From Candidatus Levyibacteriota bacterium (lineage in GTDB: Bacteria > Patescibacteriota > Microgenomatia > Levybacterales > UBA12049): a stretch of 64,000 nt of DNA. Below are positions 1 through 44,903 of the stretch, in pieces. The stretch covers positions 463,679 to 527,678 of the forward strand of contig JBEKQZ010000001.1 in assembly GCA_049519175.1 (NCBI GenBank). Direction: 5' to 3'. Within the stretch, counting starts at the first letter, position 1. Each line of letters starts with the position of its first letter. Both the position numbers and the translations under genes were made by a program. The notes under the pieces were generated by a model. The model saw only the letters and a program-made list of their open reading frames with translations, ran no database searches and was not told the DNA's origin.

Positions 1-279
1 AAAATACTGATAGGAGATTGGAAGAAGCCTTCCATCAAAATCATTCTGAATTATTTTATCTAAAGAATTAAGGAAATTTTTGTCACCATCAATTTTCTTC
101 TCGGTATCTAAACCTTTTTTGATAATTTCTTCTGGAAAATCTCTCAATTTATCTTTATTTTTTTGAAAATATTTAAAAAGAAGGAAGTAAAAAGTTCCTT
201 CGCCATCTATCCCAAATTGTCTTAAATACCTTTCAACCTCTCTAGTTAAGAAGAAAATGTCATCACTCATTTGAGTCAT
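1..279 (-). CDS. hypothetical protein, 3'-truncated at the window edge (N-terminus MTQMSDDIFFLTREVERYLRQFGIDGEGTFYF...)
   Basis: Hand translation of the minus strand from the ATG at 279-277 runs open to position 1 without a stop. It is divergent from the recombinase gene and has the AT-rich island codon usage. Confidence 0.35.
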   Translation of the reverse strand, partial: MTQMSDDIFFLTREVERYLRQFGIDGEGTFYFLLFKYFQKNKDKLRDFPEEIIKKGLDTEKKIDGDKNFLNSLDKIIQNDFDGRLLPISYQYF

Positions 280-401
280 TTTATAATATATACACCCCAA
301 ATTAAAAGCCCCACTTAAAAGAATGAAGTAATAAATTATAAGAAAAGGAACGTATATCCTCCCCTAATTGCATAAATATTAAGGGTTTATTTTTTCATAA
401 G

Positions 402-1106
402 ATGTCTTATAATAAATATATTAATATGACGTTTTCATTAAACCAGCAATCTAATCGTACATCTAAAACCTACTCTTACTTACGTGTTTCCCAAGCATCA
501 CAAGACTTAGAAAAGAACAAATTCGAGATATTGGCACTGGCGAATGCAAAACTTTTAGGAAACGTACAATTCGTTGAAGAAATAATATCTGGCAAGGTGC
601 CTTGGAGAAAAAGGAAAATAGCGGAAATACTTGAAGAGGCTCAAAAAGGAGACGCTCTTATTGTTTCGGAATTATCTCGACTGGGTCGTTCAATGTTAGA
701 AATAATGGAGATATTATCCGTGGCAACTCAAAAAGGATTATCTGTATATTCTGTAAAAGGAAGTTGGGAACTTAACGACTCAATTCAAAGCAAACTCATC
801 GCAATGTGTTTTTCCATGGCAAGTGAAATTGAACGTGATTTGATTTCAAAACGCACGATTGAAGCTTTACAAGCAAGAAAGTTGAGTGGAATGAAACTTG
901 GAAGACCAAAAGGAATTGGAAAATCCAAATTAGACCAATACAGGCCAGAAATCGAGGCGTTGTTAGCAAATGGAAGTAGTCAAAAATTTATTTCAGGTAG
1001 ATACAATACAACACCAGCTAATCTTAATCTATGGTTGAAAAAACATGAAATAAAGAAATCACAAGTTTTTATTTCTAGATCTGAGAAAGTGTCCAGCGGA
1101 ATTTGA
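402..1106 (+). CDS. serine recombinase (resolvase/invertase family)
   Basis: The N-terminal block YLRVSQASQD contains the catalytic-Ser motif of the resolvase N-domain. It has an Arg-rich core and a C-terminal HTH-like segment (GRPKG...). An alternative start lies at 426. Confidence 0.8.
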   Translation: MSYNKYINMTFSLNQQSNRTSKTYSYLRVSQASQDLEKNKFEILALANAKLLGNVQFVEEIISGKVPWRKRKIAEILEEAQKGDALIVSELSRLGRSMLEIMEILSVATQKGLSVYSVKGSWELNDSIQSKLIAMCFSMASEIERDLISKRTIEALQARKLSGMKLGRPKGIGKSKLDQYRPEIEALLANGSSQKFISGRYNTTPANLNLWLKKHEIKKSQVFISRSEKVSSGI

Positions 1107-1151
1107 GTTATTAAAACTAGTTGATTTTTAAGAAGAACCTGACGAGTTTTA

Positions 1152-1370
1152 TTAGAATGAAAACAATTCTTTTAGAGATACCTTTAATTCCTTGGCAAGC
1201 TTACCGATATTATCAAGTGCTGGGTTACGCTCCCCTCTTTCAATGCCAGAAATATAGGTTCTATCGAGTCCAGTTCGAAAACCCAATTCTTCTTGAGAAA
1301 TTTCCACCAGCTTCCTCAAAGCTCTTATTCTTTCACCAAAACTTTTCCTTAACACAGTTGATTTACTCAT
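1152..1370 (-). CDS. XRE-family helix-turn-helix transcriptional regulator
   Basis: The 72-aa protein carries IRALRKLVEISQEELGFRTGLDRTYISGIERGERNP, a classic Cro/CI HTH_3 signature. It is divergent from the downstream repeat-protein gene. Confidence 0.75.
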   Translation of the reverse strand: MSKSTVLRKSFGERIRALRKLVEISQEELGFRTGLDRTYISGIERGERNPALDNIGKLAKELKVSLKELFSF

Positions 1371-1453
1371 GTATACATACTATAATTACCCAAAAGTGGA
1401 TTATTAGTCTACGGAATATAAGTCACAATTCTTTCCGAAAGGAGGTGAAATAT

Positions 1454-2173
1454 ATGGAATCGGAAGTAAAAAAGAAAAACTGGTTTGTTAAACACAAATT
1501 TATTACAGTTTTTTTAGTCATTATTATTGTTTTTGTTATTATCGTAGCATCAAGTGGTAACAACAATTCAGGTAGCTCTAGCAACAGTACGAATACCAAT
1601 AACAATAATCAAAATACATCTGCAACAACACAAGCTACACCAGAAGCACCAGCAACGCGACAAGTTAAAGGTACGGCAACAACATTAAGTACAGGTGACT
1701 TTACTGGTGGTAAAGATGTTGTGGTTGGTTTGTATGACGTTACAACTACTAGTGGTCAAAGTGGTAACTTTATTGTTTCAGGTTCGGACAGTTACGATGA
1801 GATTCTAGGCGTTAGTGACGGACAAGGTGTACCAAATGTAAGAGTACAGATTTCCAACGGCGACCAAATTAAAATATCAGGATTAACTAGCGTCACGTTT
1901 ACGCCTGTATCAACGCCGTTTATTACTACTCATACACCAGTTACGCTTTATGCTGGAACATTTACAGTTGGTCAGGATATTGGTGCTGGTAGGTATGTCG
2001 CAACCACGACAACTGGCAGTAGTGGTAATTTTATAGTATCCGGTATTGACAGTGTCGATGAGATTTTGGGTCAAAGCGATGGGCAAGGCGTACCAAGCGT
2101 TACTACTAACTTAACTGATGGTGATGTTATTAGTATCTCGGGGTTAAGCCAAGTTATTATGACCCCTAAGTAG
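1454..2173 (+). CDS. membrane-anchored surface protein with N/S/T-rich linker and two ~100-aa tandem repeats
   Basis: A strong SD (AAAGGAGGTGAAATAT) lies upstream of the ATG at 1454. The protein has an N-terminal TM segment, a low-complexity NNNSGSSSNSTNTNNNN linker, and two repeats sharing SGNFIVSG.DS.DEILG.SDGQGVP...GD.I.ISGL. The ORF-track start at 1121 was rejected because it overlaps the XRE gene. Confidence 0.6.
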   Translation: MESEVKKKNWFVKHKFITVFLVIIIVFVIIVASSGNNNSGSSSNSTNTNNNNQNTSATTQATPEAPATRQVKGTATTLSTGDFTGGKDVVVGLYDVTTTSGQSGNFIVSGSDSYDEILGVSDGQGVPNVRVQISNGDQIKISGLTSVTFTPVSTPFITTHTPVTLYAGTFTVGQDIGAGRYVATTTTGSSGNFIVSGIDSVDEILGQSDGQGVPSVTTNLTDGDVISISGLSQVIMTPK

Positions 2174-2471
2174 AATACTGTTCAGAATGTTTTTGGACAG
2201 TCAACGTGCAAGTATAATCTTGTCTTTTTTCGGCTGGGCGGGAGCAGTCCTACCCAGAAGAAAGGAGAAAAGTGCAAATGCAGTTCATGATCTAGCGTAT
2301 ATCTGTAGCCTCGTACAATGGCGTACAACAAAAGTTTTGATGAATTTGGCATAAATGGTGTAAGCAATTTTATCGTTTAGACTGCCAATACAATCCAAAA
2401 TCATTATATATCCTTATAGAATTCCTTAGTAAAGTTGTGTTTTAGGTTTATACTATCAGTGTATTAATAAA

Positions 2472-4298
2472 ATGAACTTTGATCCACCAAAATTATATAA
2501 AAGAATTGTTTGCATAAGTGATGACTATATTCTTTCAGCACAACTATCCTCGTGCTTTCACAAGAGAAATACATATTTTGCAGTTTTAGAACCACCACGA
2601 TCTCTTCATAAGTATTGGAGAAATGAATTTATTAAATTAAACAATGTTTTGGCAAAGATAAATGCAGAAAAAATAATTTTCTTAAGCATTAAGGAAGACA
2701 TGATGACGTTAATCAAGGATCAGTTGCATATTCCAGAGAGTAAATACACATATATTGCTGATGAAAAAGAACTTTTAAGATTTTTAGATAAATACAGCAG
2801 CGTTTTTAAAGGAGTTATTGAATGTCCCCCAGATAGAAAGAAGGTTGCTTATGCACTCTTAGAAGCAAAGAGAAAAGAATTTAAACTTTTGATAAAACCT
2901 GAAGCAGAATACAAACCCAAAATTGACAAAGAAAACAATCATTTAATTGCATCGGATTCCATAGACTTATTATTACCCACAATGTTAGCAAATTATGCCT
3001 TTTCAATAAATGCAGACATTAGATTCTTTAAAGGCGAAGCGCATTACTCCCCTAAGGAAATGTATAGCATGATATCTGATACCAGAGGATCGGACGAAAG
3101 AGGCAAAACTGCCAGAGGAGTTAAAAAAGAAATCAAAACAAAACTAGAATCTGAATTAAAAAATATAAATGGTTATGAATTTATTACTTTTTTTACTGAT
3201 GATTTTCAATATGGTTATTTCTTTCCAGATATACCTAATACGCATATTTTTAATAAACTTCTAGTAGGTCAATTTATTGCGGACGCTATTGCGAAACCAT
3301 TTATAGAAGTTGATTCTGCGTTGTTAGTCGATACTGGATTTTTCTCTAATTCAGAAACAGATGATATTAAGGCTTTATTGTTAAAACAAAATGTTTTTAC
3401 TAAAGAGCTTCGCGATGACAAATTTAATAATGTTGATTTGGATAATTTTATTCAGATATATCCGTATGATTTTTTATTCATATGCAGCCATGGAGTATTC
3501 CCCGAAGGCACCCGTTTCAAAATAGGATTTAACGACAGCAAAGGCATAGATCATATTATTGTCGTAGACGTAATTGACTCATTTGGAATAACAGATAAGG
3601 GAGAACCCGATAATCCGATTGTAGATGTAAAAACAACTACGGAATTTGTTGAATTAGACAATCAACCTTGGTATCAAAAAAAATATAAACCCGGTTCGTC
3701 AAAAACAATTGTAGAAGATTTTATAGCTATTGATAGAAAGGACTGGAATGTACTCGAAAAAGAAGATGTAACAATGAACTATAGCAACGTAATCGTAACC
3801 AAAGATAAACTTGGAGCATATATCCCTATGATACATGGCATAGCTGATCCTTTTTCTTCCCCGTTTATATTTAATAATGCTTGCGTATCTACTTATACAA
3901 TGGGTGTAAATTTTATTTTTGCAGGTGCTAGTTTCTATATTGGGACAATAAGAAATGTTAAAGACTCAGTTGCGGTTAAAACTGCCACTATGTTCTTTGA
4001 AAAAACGATCACTCAAAATAAAAGCTTAGCCTTTTCATTATGGGAGGCTCAGGTAGATGCAAAGATTCCGATTGAAGATAGAGTCCACACTTGTGTAGGA
4101 TGCCATTTTCAAAAATTCTCGTTTAATAAAATACAAGATGCCAAGGAATTATTAAAAAATAGAATCATAAGATCTTCAATGATGAGGCTAAGGAGTAGTA
4201 GAAAAAGAGATTTAGAGAAAAATGTTAAAGGGAGACACATTGACGCTATAAAATTTCTTAGAAAAGTTATGTTTTCTATTGTTGCAGAAAGCAGCTAA
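2472..4298 (+). CDS. CHAT/caspase-like cysteine protease domain protein with an uncharacterised ~330-aa N-terminal region
   Basis: The C-terminal half has a hydrophobic strand followed by SHG (DFLFICSHGVF), matching the caspase His motif. A later strand ends in Cys (PFIFNNACVST), and the tail resembles CHAT C-termini (FAGASFYIGTIRNVKDS...SLAFSLWEAQ). The N-terminal half matches nothing recognisable. Confidence 0.5.
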   Translation: MNFDPPKLYKRIVCISDDYILSAQLSSCFHKRNTYFAVLEPPRSLHKYWRNEFIKLNNVLAKINAEKIIFLSIKEDMMTLIKDQLHIPESKYTYIADEKELLRFLDKYSSVFKGVIECPPDRKKVAYALLEAKRKEFKLLIKPEAEYKPKIDKENNHLIASDSIDLLLPTMLANYAFSINADIRFFKGEAHYSPKEMYSMISDTRGSDERGKTARGVKKEIKTKLESELKNINGYEFITFFTDDFQYGYFFPDIPNTHIFNKLLVGQFIADAIAKPFIEVDSALLVDTGFFSNSETDDIKALLLKQNVFTKELRDDKFNNVDLDNFIQIYPYDFLFICSHGVFPEGTRFKIGFNDSKGIDHIIVVDVIDSFGITDKGEPDNPIVDVKTTTEFVELDNQPWYQKKYKPGSSKTIVEDFIAIDRKDWNVLEKEDVTMNYSNVIVTKDKLGAYIPMIHGIADPFSSPFIFNNACVSTYTMGVNFIFAGASFYIGTIRNVKDSVAVKTATMFFEKTITQNKSLAFSLWEAQVDAKIPIEDRVHTCVGCHFQKFSFNKIQDAKELLKNRIIRSSMMRLRSSRKRDLEKNVKGRHIDAIKFLRKVMFSIVAESS

Positions 4299-4305
4299 AC
4301 AAAAT

Positions 4306-4719
4306 TCAATGCCCAAAGACAAAGGTTACTCCTGTTAATCTTAAAACTGCATAAACCGTTATCAGAAAAACTAAATAACCAATAATGAAAGCTGAACCTA
4401 ACGCAGAGATAAAAGCCTCTATTTTCCCATATTTCCTTTTATTAAATACTTTTAGAGACAAATTAAAGATATCGATAGAAAGATAGATAAAAAATAATAT
4501 AGCTGTAATTAAAAGAATTACCAAAAGCACTATGCTTTTGGTAAATAAGAAGGCAAGAAAAATTGTTTCAGAAATTATTAACCATTCTAAAAATCTAAAC
4601 CATTTAGGTGTCATTTCCATAAAAAAATTACTAGTCCTATTTAGTTTACTAATTAAATTGTTAAGCAATTTGCTATTTATAAACTTTGAATATAGCTCGT
4701 GATAATAAGGTAATTTCAT
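4306..4719 (-). CDS. small integral membrane protein (3-4 TM)
   Basis: Hydrophobic 137-aa ORF. It is the last gene of the minus-strand operon and is convergent with the CHAT gene, 7 nt apart. Confidence 0.5.
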   Translation of the reverse strand: MKLPYYHELYSKFINSKLLNNLISKLNRTSNFFMEMTPKWFRFLEWLIISETIFLAFLFTKSIVLLVILLITAILFFIYLSIDIFNLSLKVFNKRKYGKIEAFISALGSAFIIGYLVFLITVYAVLRLTGVTFVFGH

Positions 4720-4750
4720 TGATGAGATTATATCAAATAGGGAAAATTTC

Positions 4751-5401
4751 TTATTGTCTTCTTTGATGTGGAAAAGGAGTTACATTTCTTTTTTCAGCCT
4801 GAGGAAGTCCTCTGTAATATGCTTGATACTCCGTTAGATTGAGAGAATACCATTCATTGTATGCATATCTAGTAAAATATTGTGCAAGCGTTTGTCTAAA
4901 ATGTTCCAATGCTATCTTATTTAGAGTTCCTTTTCTCATCGATGCCAAATTATTTAATAAACTTTCTCTAGGAAGTTGGAATATCGTCTTAAAATCTGCA
5001 GCCATTTTCGTTGTGAATCCTATTCCTTCTGGCAAGTAGTAAAAACTATAGCCTCTTTTAGGAGATGTTTTAATCATTAGGCTAAGGAGTTCATTTTGAT
5101 TTGCTGGAAGAGTAGGTTTGCCCAAAACATTTACTAGGGTATCAATCTTAGCAAATGATATAAATTTCTTCCTTACGTTATCGCAATCTTGTGATATTAC
5201 TATACCTGATGTAGGCACCGCTTTAACAGTAAGGTGAATGTTATCTTGATTCTTAATTTCGGTCCATGTCTTTCTTTGTGGCTCATCTTCTAGATTAATT
5301 GATGCTTCCAATGCATTAAAATCTTCTAAATCAATAAAAGGTAAATCAACAAAAATGTCACCCTGTCTAATTGTTCTTACATTGGTTGCTTTGTAAATCA
5401 C
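4751..5401 (-). CDS. hypothetical protein (216 aa)
   Basis: Long ORF with island codon usage, 5 nt downstream of the preceding operon gene. No recognisable motif except a GIVISQDCDNV segment. Confidence 0.5.
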   Translation of the reverse strand: MIYKATNVRTIRQGDIFVDLPFIDLEDFNALEASINLEDEPQRKTWTEIKNQDNIHLTVKAVPTSGIVISQDCDNVRKKFISFAKIDTLVNVLGKPTLPANQNELLSLMIKTSPKRGYSFYYLPEGIGFTTKMAADFKTIFQLPRESLLNNLASMRKGTLNKIALEHFRQTLAQYFTRYAYNEWYSLNLTEYQAYYRGLPQAEKRNVTPFPHQRRQ

Positions 5402-5406
5402 TGCTC

Positions 5407-5832
5407 TTAAGCATCATCGGAATCTTCATCTAAATATGATGCCAATTGTCCTTCATTGAAAATATCCTCTTTTCTCAATGCCAAAGCACGCTCAAACGAT
5501 TGAGACGCTCTAATATAGGAATCTTTTCTTTTGGGAATAGAATAAAAAGAGGGATATAGTATTACTTCATTATCAAAGAAAGGATTGGGATAATTCGTGT
5601 CTATCTGACCAAATATGCCTTCAAAACCAATGACTCCTAAACTTTGTTCGGGTTGAGTTTTAATGCCCCCAGCCGTTGTAGCTCCAGAGATATATATAGA
5701 CATTGCATCATGTAAGGGTTTCAAGTTTTCCGCCGTGAAACTGTTATTAATGAATCCACCAGTTAATTGATTATTCATCATAGACGAGTCGTCATTAGCT
5801 GTTTCTGTTGCTGATACAGGTGTTATCCACAT
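5407..5832 (-). CDS. hypothetical protein (141 aa, acidic C-terminus)
   Basis: ORF in the operon, 2 nt from the upstream gene. Confidence 0.5.
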   Translation of the reverse strand: MWITPVSATETANDDSSMMNNQLTGGFINNSFTAENLKPLHDAMSIYISGATTAGGIKTQPEQSLGVIGFEGIFGQIDTNYPNPFFDNEVILYPSFYSIPKRKDSYIRASQSFERALALRKEDIFNEGQLASYLDEDSDDA

Positions 5833-5834
5833 GT

Positions 5835-6311
5835 TTATTTAACCTCTCTTTTCTCAACGTTGAAACTTTTAGAGCCAATAATTTTATCATTTAAAAATAC
5901 ATTTAGAGTGTGTTTTCCAATAGCTTTGAATTCAAGATTGCCTATGTCAAGTATTAAGTTTAGTGTTGGCTTTTTCTTCGCAGGTATGTTAGGCGTAGTA
6001 AATTCTGCTTTTATAGGAGGGTCAACAATTAAATTTTCATTATTGGGTCCAGCAATTTTAATTTCTAAAGTATTTTTTATACCTTCCTTGCCTTCAACCC
6101 CGATACTTACAACTGCAGTAAATTTTGGAAGCCTACCTGGAATATCTTGTAGGTAAATTATGCTAAATATCCCAAGCATATTTAATTTACCTGAACCATC
6201 AATAGTTGCAGCATCACACAAGTGAATAAAATTTATCTCAAATTGACTCATAAGGGGATTATACATCAAGACCATAAGTCTATTCAAACTGTCACTAGCT
6301 ATATTGCACAA
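5835..6311 (-). CDS. hypothetical protein (158 aa)
   Basis: ORF in the operon. The antisense ORF 5860..6156 is treated as spurious. Confidence 0.5.
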   Translation of the reverse strand: MCNIASDSLNRLMVLMYNPLMSQFEINFIHLCDAATIDGSGKLNMLGIFSIIYLQDIPGRLPKFTAVVSIGVEGKEGIKNTLEIKIAGPNNENLIVDPPIKAEFTTPNIPAKKKPTLNLILDIGNLEFKAIGKHTLNVFLNDKIIGSKSFNVEKREVK

Positions 6312-6411
6312 TTGATGATTTAAGACGTAACTTAGAAGCTAAATTCCCTACTCTAAGATTCTTTTAAAGCGAATAGCTTACAATTTTAAGAATATTTAAG
6401 CAGTAAAATAT

Positions 6412-7491
6412 TTACTTACTCTTTACATCAATTAGCCTTTTCATAAGATATAAGCTAAATTCTACTGTCATATTTTTAGACAATCTTGCATCTTCAATTT
6501 TTGATTTAAGCCTATGCACGCCCAAATTAGATAAAAAATGTCGCAATGAGATAAGAATATCACCTTGCTCCTGAGAAATTAGCTTATGTTCTATAAAAAA
6601 TTTTGCTACTCTATTAGCATCTTTTTCATCAAGATTTTTACCATCTTTACTATCTATCTCTAATGCTAGCATTTGATATAAACGCTCTGTGAAACTTCTA
6701 ATCAAATCCATGCAGTCCTTATAATCAAAATCATCTGCTGCGTTGACCAACTTTTGTTCTACTTTGTTTAAAGTTGCTGATAAATCGTTGGGGAAGCTAT
6801 ATCTTTTAAATTCTTCTTCTAATTCTAGCTTATCCTTATTTATTTCGGGATTATACCCAGACATTATTTCATTGGTTAAATTTTTTGTAATAATGACATT
6901 AATGGTCTTAAATAATAAATCGAATACTTTTACATGATTTTCATACAAGCTAGAGTAATCGTAGATGGTTTGCCCCAGCTCGTTTCTTCGTTTTACAACA
7001 TCGTCTACCCATGAATCTAGTTCAGAGATTTCGTTAGGCTTGAATATTTGCCTTTCATGTTTAAGAATATCCATAATTTCATCCAATAGAAGAATGGAAT
7101 GGTAATTGGCTCTAGAATCATAATCTGCCTGGTAATTTTGCTTAATAACTGAGAGGGCATCCAAAAATAACCCGAGGTGAATCAACGTATCCAAAGCTGT
7201 GCAACTAGCTAGATATTTCCTGTTTGGCAATAAATATTCCAACAGTAAATTTTTAAACTCTTCTTTTTGTTGTTCTGATAACTGATTGTATAAATCTCTT
7301 AATAAGATAACCTGTTTATTTACAAAATCAAAATCCGATGTGTCTTCTTCTACGATTATTTCGTCATTATTATCAGATCTTGCAACATAATTTTGTTTAT
7401 TACGCACGAGAAGATAATTTGTTTTAGCGGGTTCAATTGAGCTATTTTCTAATATTTTTCTTATCTTAAACTCTAGGTCTGTAGCTGTCAT
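6412..7491 (-). CDS. hypothetical protein (359 aa, largely alpha-helical)
   Basis: First gene of the minus-strand operon. Its C-terminal region LISLRHFLSNLGVHRLKSK is weakly reminiscent of Abi/HEPN-type proteins; this is an inference only. Confidence 0.5.
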   Translation of the reverse strand: MTATDLEFKIRKILENSSIEPAKTNYLLVRNKQNYVARSDNNDEIIVEEDTSDFDFVNKQVILLRDLYNQLSEQQKEEFKNLLLEYLLPNRKYLASCTALDTLIHLGLFLDALSVIKQNYQADYDSRANYHSILLLDEIMDILKHERQIFKPNEISELDSWVDDVVKRRNELGQTIYDYSSLYENHVKVFDLLFKTINVIITKNLTNEIMSGYNPEINKDKLELEEEFKRYSFPNDLSATLNKVEQKLVNAADDFDYKDCMDLIRSFTERLYQMLALEIDSKDGKNLDEKDANRVAKFFIEHKLISQEQGDILISLRHFLSNLGVHRLKSKIEDARLSKNMTVEFSLYLMKRLIDVKSK

Positions 7492-7633
7492 ATTATAAAA
7501 TTTCTTGACCCAATAATAGCAGGAATTTTATTCTTATACAAACAAGAAGTTGCATTTTTATAAGGATTTTGCTAACCTTTTATAAGGAATTTTGAGTTCT
7601 TGTAGGCAGAACCCTGTGTTTGCAAGGAGAAGG

Positions 7634-7660
7634 CAAAGGGTTCGACTCCCTCCGCCCGCT
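7634..7660 (+). other. orphan tRNA 3' fragment (T-arm plus acceptor 3' strand), candidate att site remnant
   Basis: aaGGG-TTCGACT-CCCtc followed by cgcccgc-t has T-stem/loop and acceptor-strand geometry. No complementary 5' acceptor strand or D/anticodon arms lie upstream. It coincides with the GC shift at the island boundary. Confidence 0.3.
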
Positions 7661-7750
7661 CATCATAAAGTCAGATCATAAAAAGCGTAGCTCAAGACTC
7701 AGCCTCAAAAACTTGACAAAAAGCCTAAAATCTGCCAGTCTTATTTATCA

Positions 7751-8329
7751 ATGAGAAAAGTCTTCCTGCTCACTGCGTTTACGCTTTTAACTCCATTTGT
7801 TTTGGTTTTAACTTTGTCCCTTCTAATCTATACCTGCTCACTAAAGAATAATTTATTAATGTTTAGTAAAAATCCACGCGTTGCTTACGCCGCACTCCCT
7901 CCGGCTTCGGGTTCTTTACAAATGACTATTGTCGCCCAGGACGCCAGAGTAATGGTGGTCAAAGATTTTCTGAAAAGATACAACTCGGACCTTCTACCTT
8001 ATGCCCAAAATATCATTAACGCGGCCGATAAATACAACCTTGATTATAGGCTCGTTCCGGCCATCGCCATGCAGGAATCAAATCTTTGCCATAAAGCCCC
8101 CAAGAACTCACATAATTGTTGGGGATTTGCCATTTACGGTAAAAATGTCTTAAAGTTTAATAATTATGCCGATGCAATCAATACTGTGACAAAAACATTG
8201 GCAATTCAGTATAAACAACAAGGACTGGAAACGCCGGAACAGATAATGACCAAATATACTCCCGGTAGTAATGGCAGCTGGGCCAAAAGCGTTAGCTATT
8301 TCATGACCCAACTCACAGTTAGCCTATAG
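7751..8329 (+). CDS. secreted GH73-like peptidoglycan hydrolase (glucosaminidase domain)
   Basis: N-terminal TM/signal. AADKYNLDYRLVPAIAMQESN...HNCWGFAIYG resembles the mannosyl-glycoprotein endo-beta-N-acetylglucosaminidase core. It is a paralog of the next gene. Confidence 0.45.
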   Translation: MRKVFLLTAFTLLTPFVLVLTLSLLIYTCSLKNNLLMFSKNPRVAYAALPPASGSLQMTIVAQDARVMVVKDFLKRYNSDLLPYAQNIINAADKYNLDYRLVPAIAMQESNLCHKAPKNSHNCWGFAIYGKNVLKFNNYADAINTVTKTLAIQYKQQGLETPEQIMTKYTPGSNGSWAKSVSYFMTQLTVSL

Positions 8330-8385: not shown

Positions 8386-8991
8386 ATGTCTTTCCAAATA
8401 CATACGTTAGGATTTTTTAATGGTCGAAAGACCAAAAACAATATGAAGAATATCATATTGCTCGCCCTGATGGCAGCAATAATCCTTATTCCTCAAAAAG
8501 CATACGCTCAAGAGTCCTCTGCATCTTCCGCAAATATCCAACTCCCAACAGTCGCAAAGACGGGAGTCGATAACCGTGTCAAAATTTTGACTAGCTATCT
8601 AAATCAGTATGATTCTCCTTTGGCGCCTTACGCTTCCGACTTTGTCGCGGCGGCCGATAAATATAACCTTGACTGGAGGCTGGTAGCCGCTATTTCAGGC
8701 GTAGAATCAACTTTTGGCAAGGAAATACCAGTTAATTCGTATAACGCCTGGGGTTGGGGAATATATGGCGACAATGTTATCGATTTTAAATCTTGGGACG
8801 ATGGCATCGAAACTGTTTCGCAAGGTTTAAGAGATAAATATATAGATCAATGGGGTGGACAAGATATCTATCAAATTGGGGCAATGTATGCCGCTTCACC
8901 CGCTTGGGCTGGACATGTTGAATTATATCTAGATAACATCCAAACATTTGCACTAAACGATCCTCAAGACACCCTTTCGATTTCTTTGTAA
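8386..8991 (+). CDS. secreted GH73-like peptidoglycan hydrolase (paralog)
   Basis: AADKYNLDWRLVAAISGVEST...YNAWGWGIYG matches the glucosaminidase core. A signal peptide MKNIILLALMAAIILIPQKAYAQ suggests the true start may be 8443. Confidence 0.45.
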   Translation: MSFQIHTLGFFNGRKTKNNMKNIILLALMAAIILIPQKAYAQESSASSANIQLPTVAKTGVDNRVKILTSYLNQYDSPLAPYASDFVAAADKYNLDWRLVAAISGVESTFGKEIPVNSYNAWGWGIYGDNVIDFKSWDDGIETVSQGLRDKYIDQWGGQDIYQIGAMYAASPAWAGHVELYLDNIQTFALNDPQDTLSISL

Positions 8992-11980: not shown

Positions 11981-13198
11981 ATGGATACGAAAATAAAAAG
12001 TCATCAGGAGCTTGGTCAGGAATTGGATTTATTTACATTTTCAGATTTAGTTGGATCAGGCCTTCCGTTGTTTACGCCAAAAGGGACTGTGCTTCGCCGA
12101 ACGCTACAAAGATATATTGAAGATCTTTTGGAAAAACAGGGCTATCAATTTGTTTCAATTCCGCATATCGCCAGAAAAGAACTTTACGAAAAATCGGGAC
12201 ATTTGGAAAAATTCGCCAACGATATGTTTCCGGTAATGCATGCTAAGGGTAGAGACTATATTCTAAAACCGGCAAACTGTCCACATCATACCCAAATTTT
12301 TGCCCGAAAACCAATTTCCTACAAAGACATGCCGCAACGCTACGCCGAAAGCACCACTCAATACCGCTCGGAACAATCAGGAGAATTAGAAGGACTAACC
12401 AGGGTGTTAGGACTCACTTTGGATGATTCACATATTTTTGCCAGACCGGATCAGGTTAAGGAAGAATTTCGACGTGCTTTGGAAGTTAATAAAACTATGC
12501 TTAAAGATTTTGGACTAAAGTATTGGATTAGACTTTCCGCTTGGGATCCAAAAAACCGAGAGAAATATTTGGGTGATGAAAAGAAATGGGAAGAAATGCA
12601 ACATTTAATGGAAGACATTTTAAAGGAGTTGAAAATTGAATATAAGAGAGTAGAAGGGGAAGCAGCCTTTTATGGTCCGAAAATGGATTTGATGGTTAAA
12701 GATTCTCTCGGTAAAGAATGGCAGTTATCGACCATTCAAGTGGACTTTAATTTACCGGACAGATTTGATTTATCATTTGTCGACGAGAACAATCAAAAGG
12801 TTAGACCGATCATGTTGCATCGGGCAACCTTTGGTTCTTACGAAAGATTTTTGGGAATGATTATCGAGCATTTCCAGGGCGCGTTTCCGTTATGGCTTTC
12901 GCCTGTGCAGATTTCACTCTTGCCGATTACCGATGAACAAAATAAATTTACTAAAGAATTAGCGGAAAAATTAAAGACCGAGAATATCAGAGTTGAAGCT
13001 GATTTACGTAACGAAAGACTTCAAGCCAAGATTAGAGAAGCTACTTTACAAAAAGTCCCATATTTAGGTATAATAGGAAAGCAAGAAACGGAAAGCGGTT
13101 CGGTTTCCGTCAGAACAAGACAAGGAAAAGATTTAGGAAAAATAAAAATAGCAGACCTAATTAACAAGTTAAAAGAAGAAATTGATAAAAAGGTATAA
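11981..13198 (+). CDS. thrS: threonyl-tRNA synthetase, catalytic plus anticodon-binding domains only
   Basis: KPANCPHHTQIF corresponds to the ThrRS KPMNCPGH motif. Class II motifs and the C-terminal anticodon-binding domain are present. At 405 aa there is no TGS/editing N-region. Confidence 0.85.
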   Translation: MDTKIKSHQELGQELDLFTFSDLVGSGLPLFTPKGTVLRRTLQRYIEDLLEKQGYQFVSIPHIARKELYEKSGHLEKFANDMFPVMHAKGRDYILKPANCPHHTQIFARKPISYKDMPQRYAESTTQYRSEQSGELEGLTRVLGLTLDDSHIFARPDQVKEEFRRALEVNKTMLKDFGLKYWIRLSAWDPKNREKYLGDEKKWEEMQHLMEDILKELKIEYKRVEGEAAFYGPKMDLMVKDSLGKEWQLSTIQVDFNLPDRFDLSFVDENNQKVRPIMLHRATFGSYERFLGMIIEHFQGAFPLWLSPVQISLLPITDEQNKFTKELAEKLKTENIRVEADLRNERLQAKIREATLQKVPYLGIIGKQETESGSVSVRTRQGKDLGKIKIADLINKLKEEIDKKV

Positions 13199-43698: not shown

Positions 43699-44325
43699 GT
43701 GAAAATTGTTAAAGCTTTTTCCAACACGAAAGATAATACTTTTTGCTTACAAGCATGTATTCAAAGCGTTTTAAATTTCTATTTCCCCACTAAAACATTT
43801 TCTGAATCTGAAGTAAGTAAAAATACAGGATATCATCCTAAGTATTTTTCCTGGAGCCCACAGGCAGTCGTATGGCTAAATAGTTTAGGTCTCAATGTGA
43901 AATTATACTCTCCCTTCAATTACAACAGACTGGTAAATGGAGGATTAGCTTATTTGAAAGAGTTTAAGAAAGATATATACGATCTTGAGGAAAAAAGAGG
44001 TGAGTATAAATTTCTTCCAGAAATTCAAAAAGCAGCAAAAGAAATGGTCGACAGGAAACTTTGGATTGATCAATTGATGAAAATCGAAGATCTGGAAAAC
44101 CAATTAAGCAAGCAAAACACTTTATGTATCGGAAAAACCATATATGAATGGCTTGATGGACACTATATCGCTGGAACTTCTCACTTCATAGTAGTTGTAA
44201 AAAAATATTCATCTGGAATCTGGCTTATTCAGGATCCTGGACTACCTATGGTAGGAAATCGAAAAGTTAACCAATCTATTAATAACCATAGTATTTTAGG
44301 AGACATTATTCTAGTAAAAAATTAG
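43699..44325 (+). CDS. papain-like cysteine peptidase (C39_2/BtrH-N-like)
   Basis: FCLQACIQSVLNFY places the Cys at a helix N-cap, as in the C39_2 family. A His lies later in HYIAGTSHFIVVV. Confidence 0.4.
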   Translation: MKIVKAFSNTKDNTFCLQACIQSVLNFYFPTKTFSESEVSKNTGYHPKYFSWSPQAVVWLNSLGLNVKLYSPFNYNRLVNGGLAYLKEFKKDIYDLEEKRGEYKFLPEIQKAAKEMVDRKLWIDQLMKIEDLENQLSKQNTLCIGKTIYEWLDGHYIAGTSHFIVVVKKYSSGIWLIQDPGLPMVGNRKVNQSINNHSILGDIILVKN

Positions 44326-44348
44326 CTTCAGCAAATTTGAAGCAAAAT

Positions 44349-44903
44349 TTAAAGTTCGACTTCTTTTTTTAAAGGCTCTAGTCCTTTCAAAGTAACTCTC
44401 GCAATTGACATTATAGAACGGACAACTGGATTTATTCCTCCCACCTGAAGCTCTTTCCCAATCTGTTGTAAAACAAATTCTTTATCCTTTTTAGGCTTAC
44501 CCGAATGAATACTACCTTCAACGTTGCATAAAAATTTTATAAGGTCAAACACAGTAAACCAATTTCCCGATGATTTCATTACCATTGTTTTTAACATTTT
44601 GCCTCTATCAACTTCTATTGGAGCTGCTGAATAAGCAGTCTCTGGATCAAAACCATCCTGTATCGACCAAAAGACCGCTTCCTGCATTAAAGGATTAATC
44701 TGACGACCATTTATTATAAATTTAATTTTAAATCTTCCTTTTTCGTTTACTTGATCTATTAATGGATAATCATCAAGTAATAATTTTCTCAAAAGACCTG
44801 CAATCATTAAGATTTCATAAGCATCTTGAGAGCTTAATCTATTTTTTATATCTTCAAGAGTTTTTATAAATAGAACCTTTTTATCCATAAAAAAATTATA
44901 CAC
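44349..44903 (-). CDS. hypothetical protein (about 180 aa)
   Basis: Long ORF. The start may be MDKKVLF. Confidence 0.4.
   Translation of the reverse strand: MYNFFMDKKVLFIKTLEDIKNRLSSQDAYEILMIAGLLRKLLLDDYPLIDQVNEKGRFKIKFIINGRQINPLMQEAVFWSIQDGFDPETAYSAAPIEVDRGKMLKTMVMKSSGNWFTVFDLIKFLCNVEGSIHSGKPKKDKEFVLQQIGKELQVGGINPVVRSIMSIARVTLKGLEPLKKEVEL

Follow-up and report, generated by a model that had tools for sequence, protein, structure and literature searches.

A genomic island in a Candidatus Levyibacteriota genome that splits the host tRNA-Gly(GCC) gene and carries an intact tRNA-Gly(GCC) of its own

What leaves the 3' part of a tRNA gene, with no 5' half in front of it, at the edge of an AT-rich tract? 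The question is raised by the first 7.6 kb of the 64,000-nucleotide stretch of a Candidatus Levyibacteriota genome (Candidate Phyla Radiation, CPR) analysed here, which we call the window. An earlier note, made from the letters of the window alone, had read this tract as an integrative island that used the tRNA fragment as an attachment (att) site, with an intact tRNA of matching 3' end to be expected upstream. We find that window positions 1-7662 are the right-hand 7.6 kb, or two-thirds, of a ~12-kb island. The best explanation, to which we give a probability of roughly 80%, is that a tyrosine integrase inserted this island into the host tRNA-Gly(GCC) gene at an 8-bp core, that the split gene was left unrepaired, and that the island brought its own tRNA-Gly(GCC) as a replacement, following the logic of 'tRNA-dependent lysogeny'.

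Borders of the island and the split host tRNA

Flanking DNA was taken from contig k141_64433 (579,907 bp; ENA ERZ27250144), of which ~74 kb were examined. The 9.6 kb upstream of the window are included as locus L001, so that window position equals L001 position minus 9599. The loci compared number 48 in all. We refer to the split host tRNA-Gly(GCC) as tRNA A and to the intact, element-borne tRNA-Gly(GCC) as tRNA B. The features at the two borders are as follows.

L001 4880-4952: tRNA-Val(TAC), upstream of the window
L001 5107-5180: tRNA-Phe(GAA), upstream of the window
L001 5205-5246: 5' fragment (42 nt) of the host tRNA-Gly, beginning 84 nt before tRNA B
L001 5239-5246: left copy of the 8-bp core CAAGGAGA, outside the window
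L001 5289-5361: tRNA-Gly(GCC) B, complete, 42 nt past the attL core and 100 nt before the integrase gene (int); 64.1 bits
L001 5463-6473: tyrosine integrase gene, just outside the window; Pfam Phage_integrase, E = 3e-22
Window 7556-7566 and 7578-7588, plus strand: TTTTATAAGGA, present as two direct copies within the P arm at a distance of 35-67 nt from the core
Window 7623-7630, plus strand: right copy of the core CAAGGAGA, the strand exchange site according to the alignment of empty site, attL and attR
Window 7623-7662, plus strand: attR, the displaced 3' part of the host tRNA-Gly(GCC), C36 to U73 plus CA; right border of the island
Window 7751-8329, plus strand: first host gene after the island, 192 aa with a weak SLT-like match; synteny anchor

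The composition of the island is foreign to the host. In 1-kb windows the GC content is 0.30-0.36 over the first ~7600 positions and about 0.41 past them; 200-nt windows likewise place the step at about 7600, and in the upstream direction the low-GC tract reaches to about L001 6500. The whole island has a GC content of 0.336 against 0.413 for the host, where 12-kb windows range from 0.401 to 0.436. In tetranucleotide usage it lies at an L1 distance of 0.314 from the host, compared with 0.095 +/- 0.011 (maximum 0.117) for host windows, placing it ~20 standard deviations outside. The AT-rich tract of the earlier note, drawn from the window start to ~7650, is thereby confirmed. From core to core the island measures 11,983 bp (L001 5239 to 17222), and together with attR it occupies about 506,099 to 518,121 of k141_64433 (L001 5239-17261). 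Its real start therefore lies 4,360 bp upstream of the window start, at which the earlier note had let it begin.

The tRNA piece at the right border is real and has no 5' half there, as had been noticed, but it is 40 nt long, starting from anticodon base C36, rather than 27 nt. The sequence GGGTTCGACTCCCTCCGCCCGCT occurs once in the window, at 7638-7660 on the plus strand (0 matches in 100 shuffles), and neither ARAGORN nor Rfam calls a tRNA at that position. No second copy of the orphan 3' sequence, allowing up to 3 mismatches, is present in the 9.6 kb upstream. In place of the anticipated intact tRNA sharing the 3' ~27 nt, the upstream DNA holds the first 42 nt of the host gene (GCGGGCGTAGTTCACCGGTAGAACGTCTCCTTGCCAAGGAGA, that is GCGGGCG...TTGCCAAGGAGA, from L001 5205), followed by unrelated DNA and then by a divergent tRNA-Gly(GCC).

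The two host fragments belong to one gene. The acceptor strand GCGGGCG and the anticodon-stem strand TCTCC of the 5' fragment exactly complement CGCCCGC and GGAGA, respectively, of the orphan 3' piece, and L001 5205-5246 joined to the sequence past the right core is recognized by ARAGORN as a 73-nt tRNA-Gly(GCC) that is identical to the tRNA of relative L002 at 67/73 positions. The 5' fragment matches the first 42 nt of the tRNA-Gly in L002-L005 at 42/42 positions, and in these relatives the gene goes on after nucleotide 42 as AGGCAGTGGGTTCGATCCCCATCGCCCGCTC, the counterpart of the orphan 3' piece. Aligning the junctions leaves the 8 bp CAAGGAGA as the sole sequence common to attL and attR and the only part that is duplicated; it corresponds to tRNA positions 36-43, which begin with the last base of the anticodon and finish where the 3' strand of the anticodon stem does.

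attB (relative): ...GTCTCCTTGC CAAGGAGA AGGCAGTGGG...
attL: ...GTCTCCTTGC CAAGGAGA GGAAAGCGGACTGGATGAAC...
attR: ...CCCTGTGTTTG CAAGGAGA AGGCAAAGGGTTCGACTCCCTCCGCCCGCTCA
Reconstructed attB: contains ...TTGCCAAGGAGAAGGCAAAGGG...
Reconstructed attP: contains ...CTGTGTTTGCAAGGAGAGGAAAGCGG...

In the attL region ARAGORN calls only tRNA B, and at attR it calls no tRNA; the remnant at attL scores 24.3 bits against an Rfam tRNA gathering score of 29. The host tRNA-Gly(GCC) is thus split by the insertion and is not rebuilt at either junction, because the element shares only 8 bp with it.

The empty site, which the earlier note had proposed to seek in island-free relatives, was located using the first host gene past the island (window 7751-8329) as query against Levyibacteriota and other Microgenomates, giving 33 loci. 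In L002, where the flanking Band_7 protein is 98.8% identical, the order is Band_7, tRNA-Val, tRNA-Phe and tRNA-Gly(GCC), followed 83 nt on by the homologue of the query gene. An intact tRNA-Gly(GCC) therefore stands at the exact spot of the insertion, and in L008 and L009 one likewise directly adjoins the homologue. None of the island proteins (0/16) has a tblastn match in any relative's locus. The proposal of an integrative island with the tRNA piece as an att site is thus borne out, the piece being attR. The same note would have abandoned the island if no intact tRNA matched the fragment; none does, yet the island is real, and such a test would here have rejected it wrongly.

Two other origins of the tRNA pieces were considered. 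A split tRNA of the Nanoarchaeum type is rejected since the halves do not abut at 37/38 but have 8 nt in common, and also since they flank a foreign, integrase-bearing insert that is missing in relatives. A tmRNA origin of the orphan fragment is rejected as well: the Rfam match covers only 13 nt at 6.8 bits, and the fragment completes a tRNA-Gly.

The integrase family and the element-borne tRNA

The predicted mobility enzyme is the tyrosine integrase encoded upstream of the window. The protein is full length and conserves all of the catalytic residues R-K-HxxR-H-Y. It has 97 homologues at E <= 1e-20, mostly in Patescibacteria metagenomes. Scans of viral_contigs with the integrase and with tRNA B gave no match.

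Two of these relatives display a canonical arrangement. Locus L037 (DATICB010000011, an 84-kb contig; integrase 65% identical) has an intact A-type tRNA-Gly(GCC) directly upstream of int, and a perfect 40-nt direct repeat CAAGGAGAAGGTAGTGGGTCCGATTCCCATCGCCCGCTCA (CAAGGAGAAGG...CGCTCA) lies within this tRNA-Gly and again 6.4 kb downstream. Locus L043 (integrase 69% identical) is the unintegrated attP form, consisting of a P arm, the same 40 nt, a P' arm and int, without a tRNA 5' half. The 40-nt repeats of both loci begin at the same C (C36) as the 8-bp core of our island, and the island P arm at attR (...GGCAGAACCCTGTGTTTG) aligns with the P arms of both right up to the core. Past tRNA B, the P' arm can be aligned with the P' arms behind the relatives' 40-nt cores, and a hairpin that spans the start codon of int, GTAAGAACTCAAAAGGATGAGTTCTTATG, is conserved within the alignment. 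This homology implies that the 3' 40 nt of tRNA B occupy the position of the canonical attP core. Judged by these alignments, the integrase family normally carries 40 nt of the tRNA and restores the gene, while the present element shares only the first 8 nt and does not restore it. TTTTATAAGGA occurs nowhere in the 20.7-kb locus but in its two P-arm copies, which are candidate arm-type sites for integrase binding. Small islands of the same integrase family carry variable cargo, for example PIN, zeta toxin and CAP domain proteins.

tRNA B has the anticodon of the destroyed host gene and differs from tRNA A at 17/73 positions, and its 3' end does not match that of the orphan fragment (GGTTCGAACCCGCCCACCCGC against GGTTCGACTCCCTCCGCCCGC). 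Changes in the stems are two-sided with pairing kept. In the acceptor stem, as read from the sequences, C6-G67 becomes U6-A67; in the anticodon stem UCUCC/GGAGA becomes CUUCC/GGAAG; and the same holds for the T-stem. G1-C72, C2-G71, G3-C70, U73 and C35/C36, which are bacterial glycine identity elements, are present in both tRNAs. Because its stems are kept through two-sided changes, tRNA B fits a working tRNA that originated in another lineage. Across the 48 loci, the best match to its D and anticodon arms is the tRNA-Gly of another Levybacteria genome, L009 (33 nt at 97%). The window has no second copy of the tRNA B 3' end, which rules out that tRNA B arose as a hybrid in a separate canonical integration. 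Between the core and tRNA B lies a 42-nt leader that includes GGAAAGCGGACTGGATGAACTACTTTCGTTAGAAACAAATTC.

We propose that the tyrosine integrase would recombine the attP of the element with the host tRNA-Gly(GCC) at CAAGGAGA, leaving the 5' 42 nt of the host gene at attL and the 3' 40 nt at attR. tRNA B would then compensate for tRNA A, and to judge by its anticodon and position it has most likely taken over the decoding that was lost. Its transcription probably starts at the promoter of the host tRNA-Val/Phe cluster: a promoter scan, in which overall counts were not above those of shuffles, gave a promoter-like site before tRNA-Phe and none between the tRNA A fragment and tRNA B.

How such an element could have arisen is a more tentative matter. 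On the most economical account, an ancestor with a canonical, B-type 40-nt core may have sat in a host with a B-type tRNA-Gly, from which an aberrant excision could have carried off the whole tRNA-Gly together with its 42-nt upstream leader, creating a short new core. The new junction CAAGGAGA would fit A-type hosts, which the old core CAAGGAAG does not. It is conceivable, though we would not count on it, that the locus preserves in this way a canonical, tRNA-restoring island in the act of turning into a tRNA-replacing one, through capture at excision, a new core (CAAGGAGA in place of CAAGGAAG) and retargeting, and that its carriers decode GGC/GGU only via the island tRNA. Were this so, a reduced CPR genome with single-copy tRNAs would read these codons only through a foreign, island-borne tRNA, a dependence that could be tested in natural populations because the island appears to be polymorphic. 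The placement of tRNA B where the relatives have their 40-nt core offers a concrete and checkable hypothesis for the origin of such systems.

Some observations on the wider integrase family stand apart from this proposal. Five metagenome contigs with integrase relatives (L035, L039, L040, L041 and L044) start within the last 30-50 nt of a tRNA-Gly(GCC). Contigs are expected to start inside the 40-nt stretch because the repeat breaks assembly. The att repeat thus systematically breaks short-read assemblies, and such islands are under-represented in binned genomes.

A different split pseudo-tRNA-Gly surrounds an intact tRNA-Gly in L012 505-947 (JBBTYY010000060, Patescibacteria H52-bin050_1). Here a tRNA-Gly 5' part, with its anticodon arm replaced by the GC hairpin CCCCGCC-AG-GGCGGGG, precedes an intact tRNA-Gly(GCC) at 566-638 and a small GIY-YIG-like open reading frame (ORF) at about 650-890, after which comes a matching 3' part that again has this hairpin, together with the T arm and acceptor end of the tRNA. 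One possibility is that a homing-endonuclease cassette here carries a replacement tRNA along with it. In L037 (18043-18285) and L043 (29-334), too, small GIY-YIG ORFs adjoin tRNAs.

Alternative accounts of the locus

Several points count against a tRNA-replacing, mobile island. The donor of the 42-nt spacer and tRNA B was not found among the 48 loci, which yielded only partial tRNA matches, so that the capture scenario draws on arm alignments. No other tRNA-Gly(GCC) is present in the ~74 kb examined of the contig, but should a second copy lie beyond them, tRNA B would be dispensable. An excised attP form of our island itself was not observed, and no excisionase, replication, conjugation or other transfer, or packaging genes were recognized among the scanned island genes, so the island may no longer be mobile. 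Finally, the second assembly described below is nucleotide-identical to ours and may share reads with it; it checks the assembler and not necessarily a second sample.

These points lend themselves to a view in which the island is a fossil that has lost its mobility, a further tRNA-Gly(GCC) exists in the genome and tRNA B is mere cargo. The missing mobility genes and the ~74-kb reach of the tRNA scan are compatible with it. tRNA B, however, has precisely the anticodon that was destroyed, sits directly at the junction and has stems kept by compensatory changes, and CPR genomes usually have single-copy tRNA sets. An immobile island is also at odds with a Logan contig (SRR7028199_179031; k = 31; 12,035 bp) that is 100% identical to L001 5217-17251, both junctions included. 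Its ends each lie exactly 30 nt (k-1) into the host tRNA, with start CACCGGTAGAACGTCTCCTTGCCAAGGAGA and end CAAGGAGAAGGCAAAGGGTTCGACTCCCTC, and the right-hand 30-mer holds this strain's own T arm. Ends at k-1 are what a de Bruijn graph would give where a path through an intact tRNA A branches off, as with a co-occurring intact allele. The contig ends therefore suggest that island-free cells or excision products co-occur with the island, which would make it polymorphic or excising. We consider a fossil unlikely.

A second alternative, which we judge to be somewhat less probable again, is that a canonical island first rebuilt the tRNA with a 40-nt core and later decayed, such that the 42 nt after CAAGGAGA are an eroded core whose loss was made tolerable by a spare tRNA-Gly. 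All characterized relatives of the integrase do use a 40-nt restoring core, and the first bases past the core share a few matches with the tRNA variable region and T stem (GG.A..GCGG). Past the 8 bp, however, attL matches the canonical core at about 11/31 positions, no more than expected by chance; elsewhere in the island and at the junctions no other sign of decay is seen, and the integrase is intact with all of its catalytic residues. The P' arm homology moreover assigns the place of the canonical core to the 3' 40 nt of tRNA B and not to the 42-nt spacer.

An assembly chimera, in which a foreign AT-rich contig was joined to the host at short tRNA-derived repeats, might be feared for a metagenome contig, the more so as many related contigs break inside tRNA-Gly. 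It is very improbable. The shared sequence of 8-40 nt is far under the k = 141 of this contig, both junctions recur at 100% identity in the k = 31 assembly, the junctions fall at the exact crossover base of the related integrases, and the integrase adjoins tRNA-Gly as it does in relatives. Insertion by the serine recombinase, with an incidental tRNA fragment, has in its favour that this is the sole recombinase within the window, but hardly deserves belief given that the protein is a 234-aa invertase/resolvase type without the large C-terminal domain of serine integrases and that the junctions correspond to att sites used by the family of the tyrosine integrase.

Cargo, surroundings and comparison with known systems

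The remaining genes of the island are listed from its left to its right end.

L001 6527-6946, minus strand: HNH endonuclease; PHROG E = 2e-45
Beside the S-like gene of the next entry, outside the window: 138-aa ORF
Upstream of the methyltransferase part, outside the window: half-size type I S-like specificity gene; Methylase_S
L001 8811-9878, minus strand: N6-adenine DNA methyltransferase, with its 5' part at window 1..279, cut by the window start; Pfam N6_Mtase E = 3e-28, Eco57I
Window 402..1106, plus strand: small serine recombinase, 234 aa; Pfam Resolvase E = 2e-26
Window 1152..1370, minus strand: XRE-family helix-turn-helix regulator, 51 or 72 aa according to which start codon is taken; Pfam HTH_3 E = 2e-14
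Window 1454..2173, plus strand: 239-aa protein, predicted to be secreted or membrane-bound, in which a domain is duplicated internally
Window 2472..4298, plus strand: 608-aa cargo protein (p608), no family at threshold
Window 4306..7491, minus strand: five co-oriented cargo genes called as ORFs, comprising the next five entries
Window 4306-4719, minus strand: p137, membrane protein
Window 4751-5401, minus strand: p216
Window 5407-5832, minus strand: p141
Window 5835-6311, minus strand: DUF6941; E = 3e-21
Window 6412-7491, minus strand: p359

Both the serine recombinase and the XRE regulator that the earlier note had placed in the tract are confirmed by these matches. The recombinase is not the integration enzyme: it is closest to DNA invertases (PHROG 'DNA invertase', E = 6e-37; NCBIfam Mpi-family invertase, E = 5e-51, below the curated cut-off), and its resolvase domain covers residues 24-164 of 234, leaving no space for the large C-terminal region of serine integrases. 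It is thus classified, from its domain content, as a Hin/Mpi-type invertase/resolvase and island cargo, and the window itself has no integrase. An element built around a large serine integrase was considered and dropped, the protein being 234 aa against more than about 400 aa and its best families being DNA invertases. In a search for an invertible segment, nothing convincing in the way of inverted repeats turned up near the invertase and methyltransferase genes.

Searches with the cargo yielded few functional leads. PADLOC returned only generic methyltransferase and S-subunit matches, those of the methyltransferase being MTase_I, MTase_II and mad2. The gene for the 239-aa protein contains a 136-nt direct repeat (1700-1835 and 1961-2096, 71% identity), giving a two-domain protein that matches phrog_32160, an unknown family, at E = 9e-29, and superinfection-exclusion proteins weakly at its N terminus. 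p608 has a sub-threshold Pfam match to CHAT (caspase-like protease; E = 0.012, residues 294-345); by eye, its SHG and NAC motifs resemble the catalytic His and Cys of the CHAT fold. PDB sequence searches found no relative for p608 or p359, and in the minus-strand block nothing besides DUF6941 has a PADLOC, NCBIfam or PDB match. No capsid, terminase, tail or lysis match was found in PHROGs, Pfam or NCBIfam for the scanned island genes, the only such finds being an integrase, an HNH endonuclease, an invertase and a methyltransferase (of four short ORFs, p99 was outside every library scan, and p94, p97 and p116 were outside that of PHROGs). By this gene content the element is not a phage, though it would work like the phage systems.

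Beyond the island, the window-7751 gene and its neighbour at 8386-8991 (plus strand) are tandem paralogous host genes of 192 and 201 aa with signal or membrane N-termini and only weak SLT/glucosaminidase-like matches. The window-7751 family is kept beside the tRNA-Val/Phe/Gly cluster across Microgenomates, and the cluster is a hotspot of rearrangement and insertion across Levyibacteriota: an extra 2-4 kb lies between tRNA-Phe and tRNA-Gly in L005, L007 and L037, 1.1 kb separates tRNA-Gly from the flanking gene in L003, and tRNA-Gly is inverted in L004 and L005. In L004, a close host relative, ARAGORN calls a tRNA with a 4-base anticodon (gaac) at 12688-12764, 10 nt upstream of a normal tRNA-Val(GAC). 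Another short low-GC patch (0.328 in the 44-45 kb window) is found at window 43699-44903, directly upstream of gyrB, with two ORFs of 208 and 184 aa that have no Pfam family.

The closest comparison within the integrase family is with the canonical tRNA-Gly(GCC) islands L037 and L043. These share with our island the target tRNA, the first base of the repeat (C36), a homologous integrase (65-69%) and the P and P' arms, and they too are small islands of variable cargo without phage genes. They differ in carrying 40 nt of tRNA 3' sequence in attP, in rebuilding the tRNA and in lacking a complete tRNA gene. Measured against the tDNA islands collected by Islander (Hudson, Lau and Williams 2015, PMC4383910), our island has the integrase beside a tRNA, the displaced tRNA fragment at the far border and the foreign composition, but departs from the canonical definition in not regenerating the disrupted tRNA, since 42 nt of unrelated DNA follow the host 5' part; L037 and L043 do regenerate it. 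Island finders that need an intact tRNA and a matching 3' repeat would miss such elements or place their borders wrongly.

In tRNA-dependent lysogeny, attP and an attB within a host tRNA share just 8-17 bp and the tRNA is not rebuilt, and closely related phages use the same attB with restoring cores of 43-52 bp (Guerrero-Bustamante and Hatfull, mBio 2024, PMC10865867). Fionnbharth (K4) uses tRNA-Lys-TTT with a 10-bp core and Gaia (X) tRNA-Leu-CAA with an 8-bp core (PMC10865867). The likeness to our locus is close. In both, the attB lies within a host tRNA gene and is the target of a tyrosine integrase, the recombination itself being read here from the junctions; the core is short (8 bp here, 8-17 bp there) and neither attL nor attR holds a functional tRNA; close integrase relatives (65-69% identical here, 78% there) use the same attB with a restoring core of 40-52 bp; and a complete tRNA of the destroyed anticodon, here tRNA B, lies inside the element.

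The differences concern host, element and evidence. The host is a member of the Patescibacteria (CPR), and the element is a 12-kb island without recognizable phage genes rather than a temperate phage; its tRNA-Gly-GCC lies between core and int, at the canonical core place, whereas the tRNA of Fionnbharth is elsewhere in its genome; and the tRNA requirement is deduced here from sequence and not from genetics. The one possible case from outside the Actinobacteria mentioned by the authors, who call for further surveys of how widespread the strategy is (PMC10865867), is Lj965 of Lactobacillus johnsonii. As described there, this prophage resembles our island in that the tRNA is not rebuilt at the junction and a cognate tRNA is encoded, and differs in being a Firmicute prophage. 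Later uses of the term 'tRNA-dependent lysogeny' retrieved by our literature search concern actinophages and Sinorhizobium prophages, and a mention of Patescibacteria was not found.

All features of tRNA-dependent lysogeny that can be read at the sequence level are thus matched, in what would be a new host phylum and a new element type for a recently described kind of integration. Where tRNA sets are minimal, an essential decoding function may come from horizontally acquired DNA, and tRNA-replacing integration, described in 2024 for actinobacteriophages, would extend to CPR bacteria and to small islands without recognizable phage genes.

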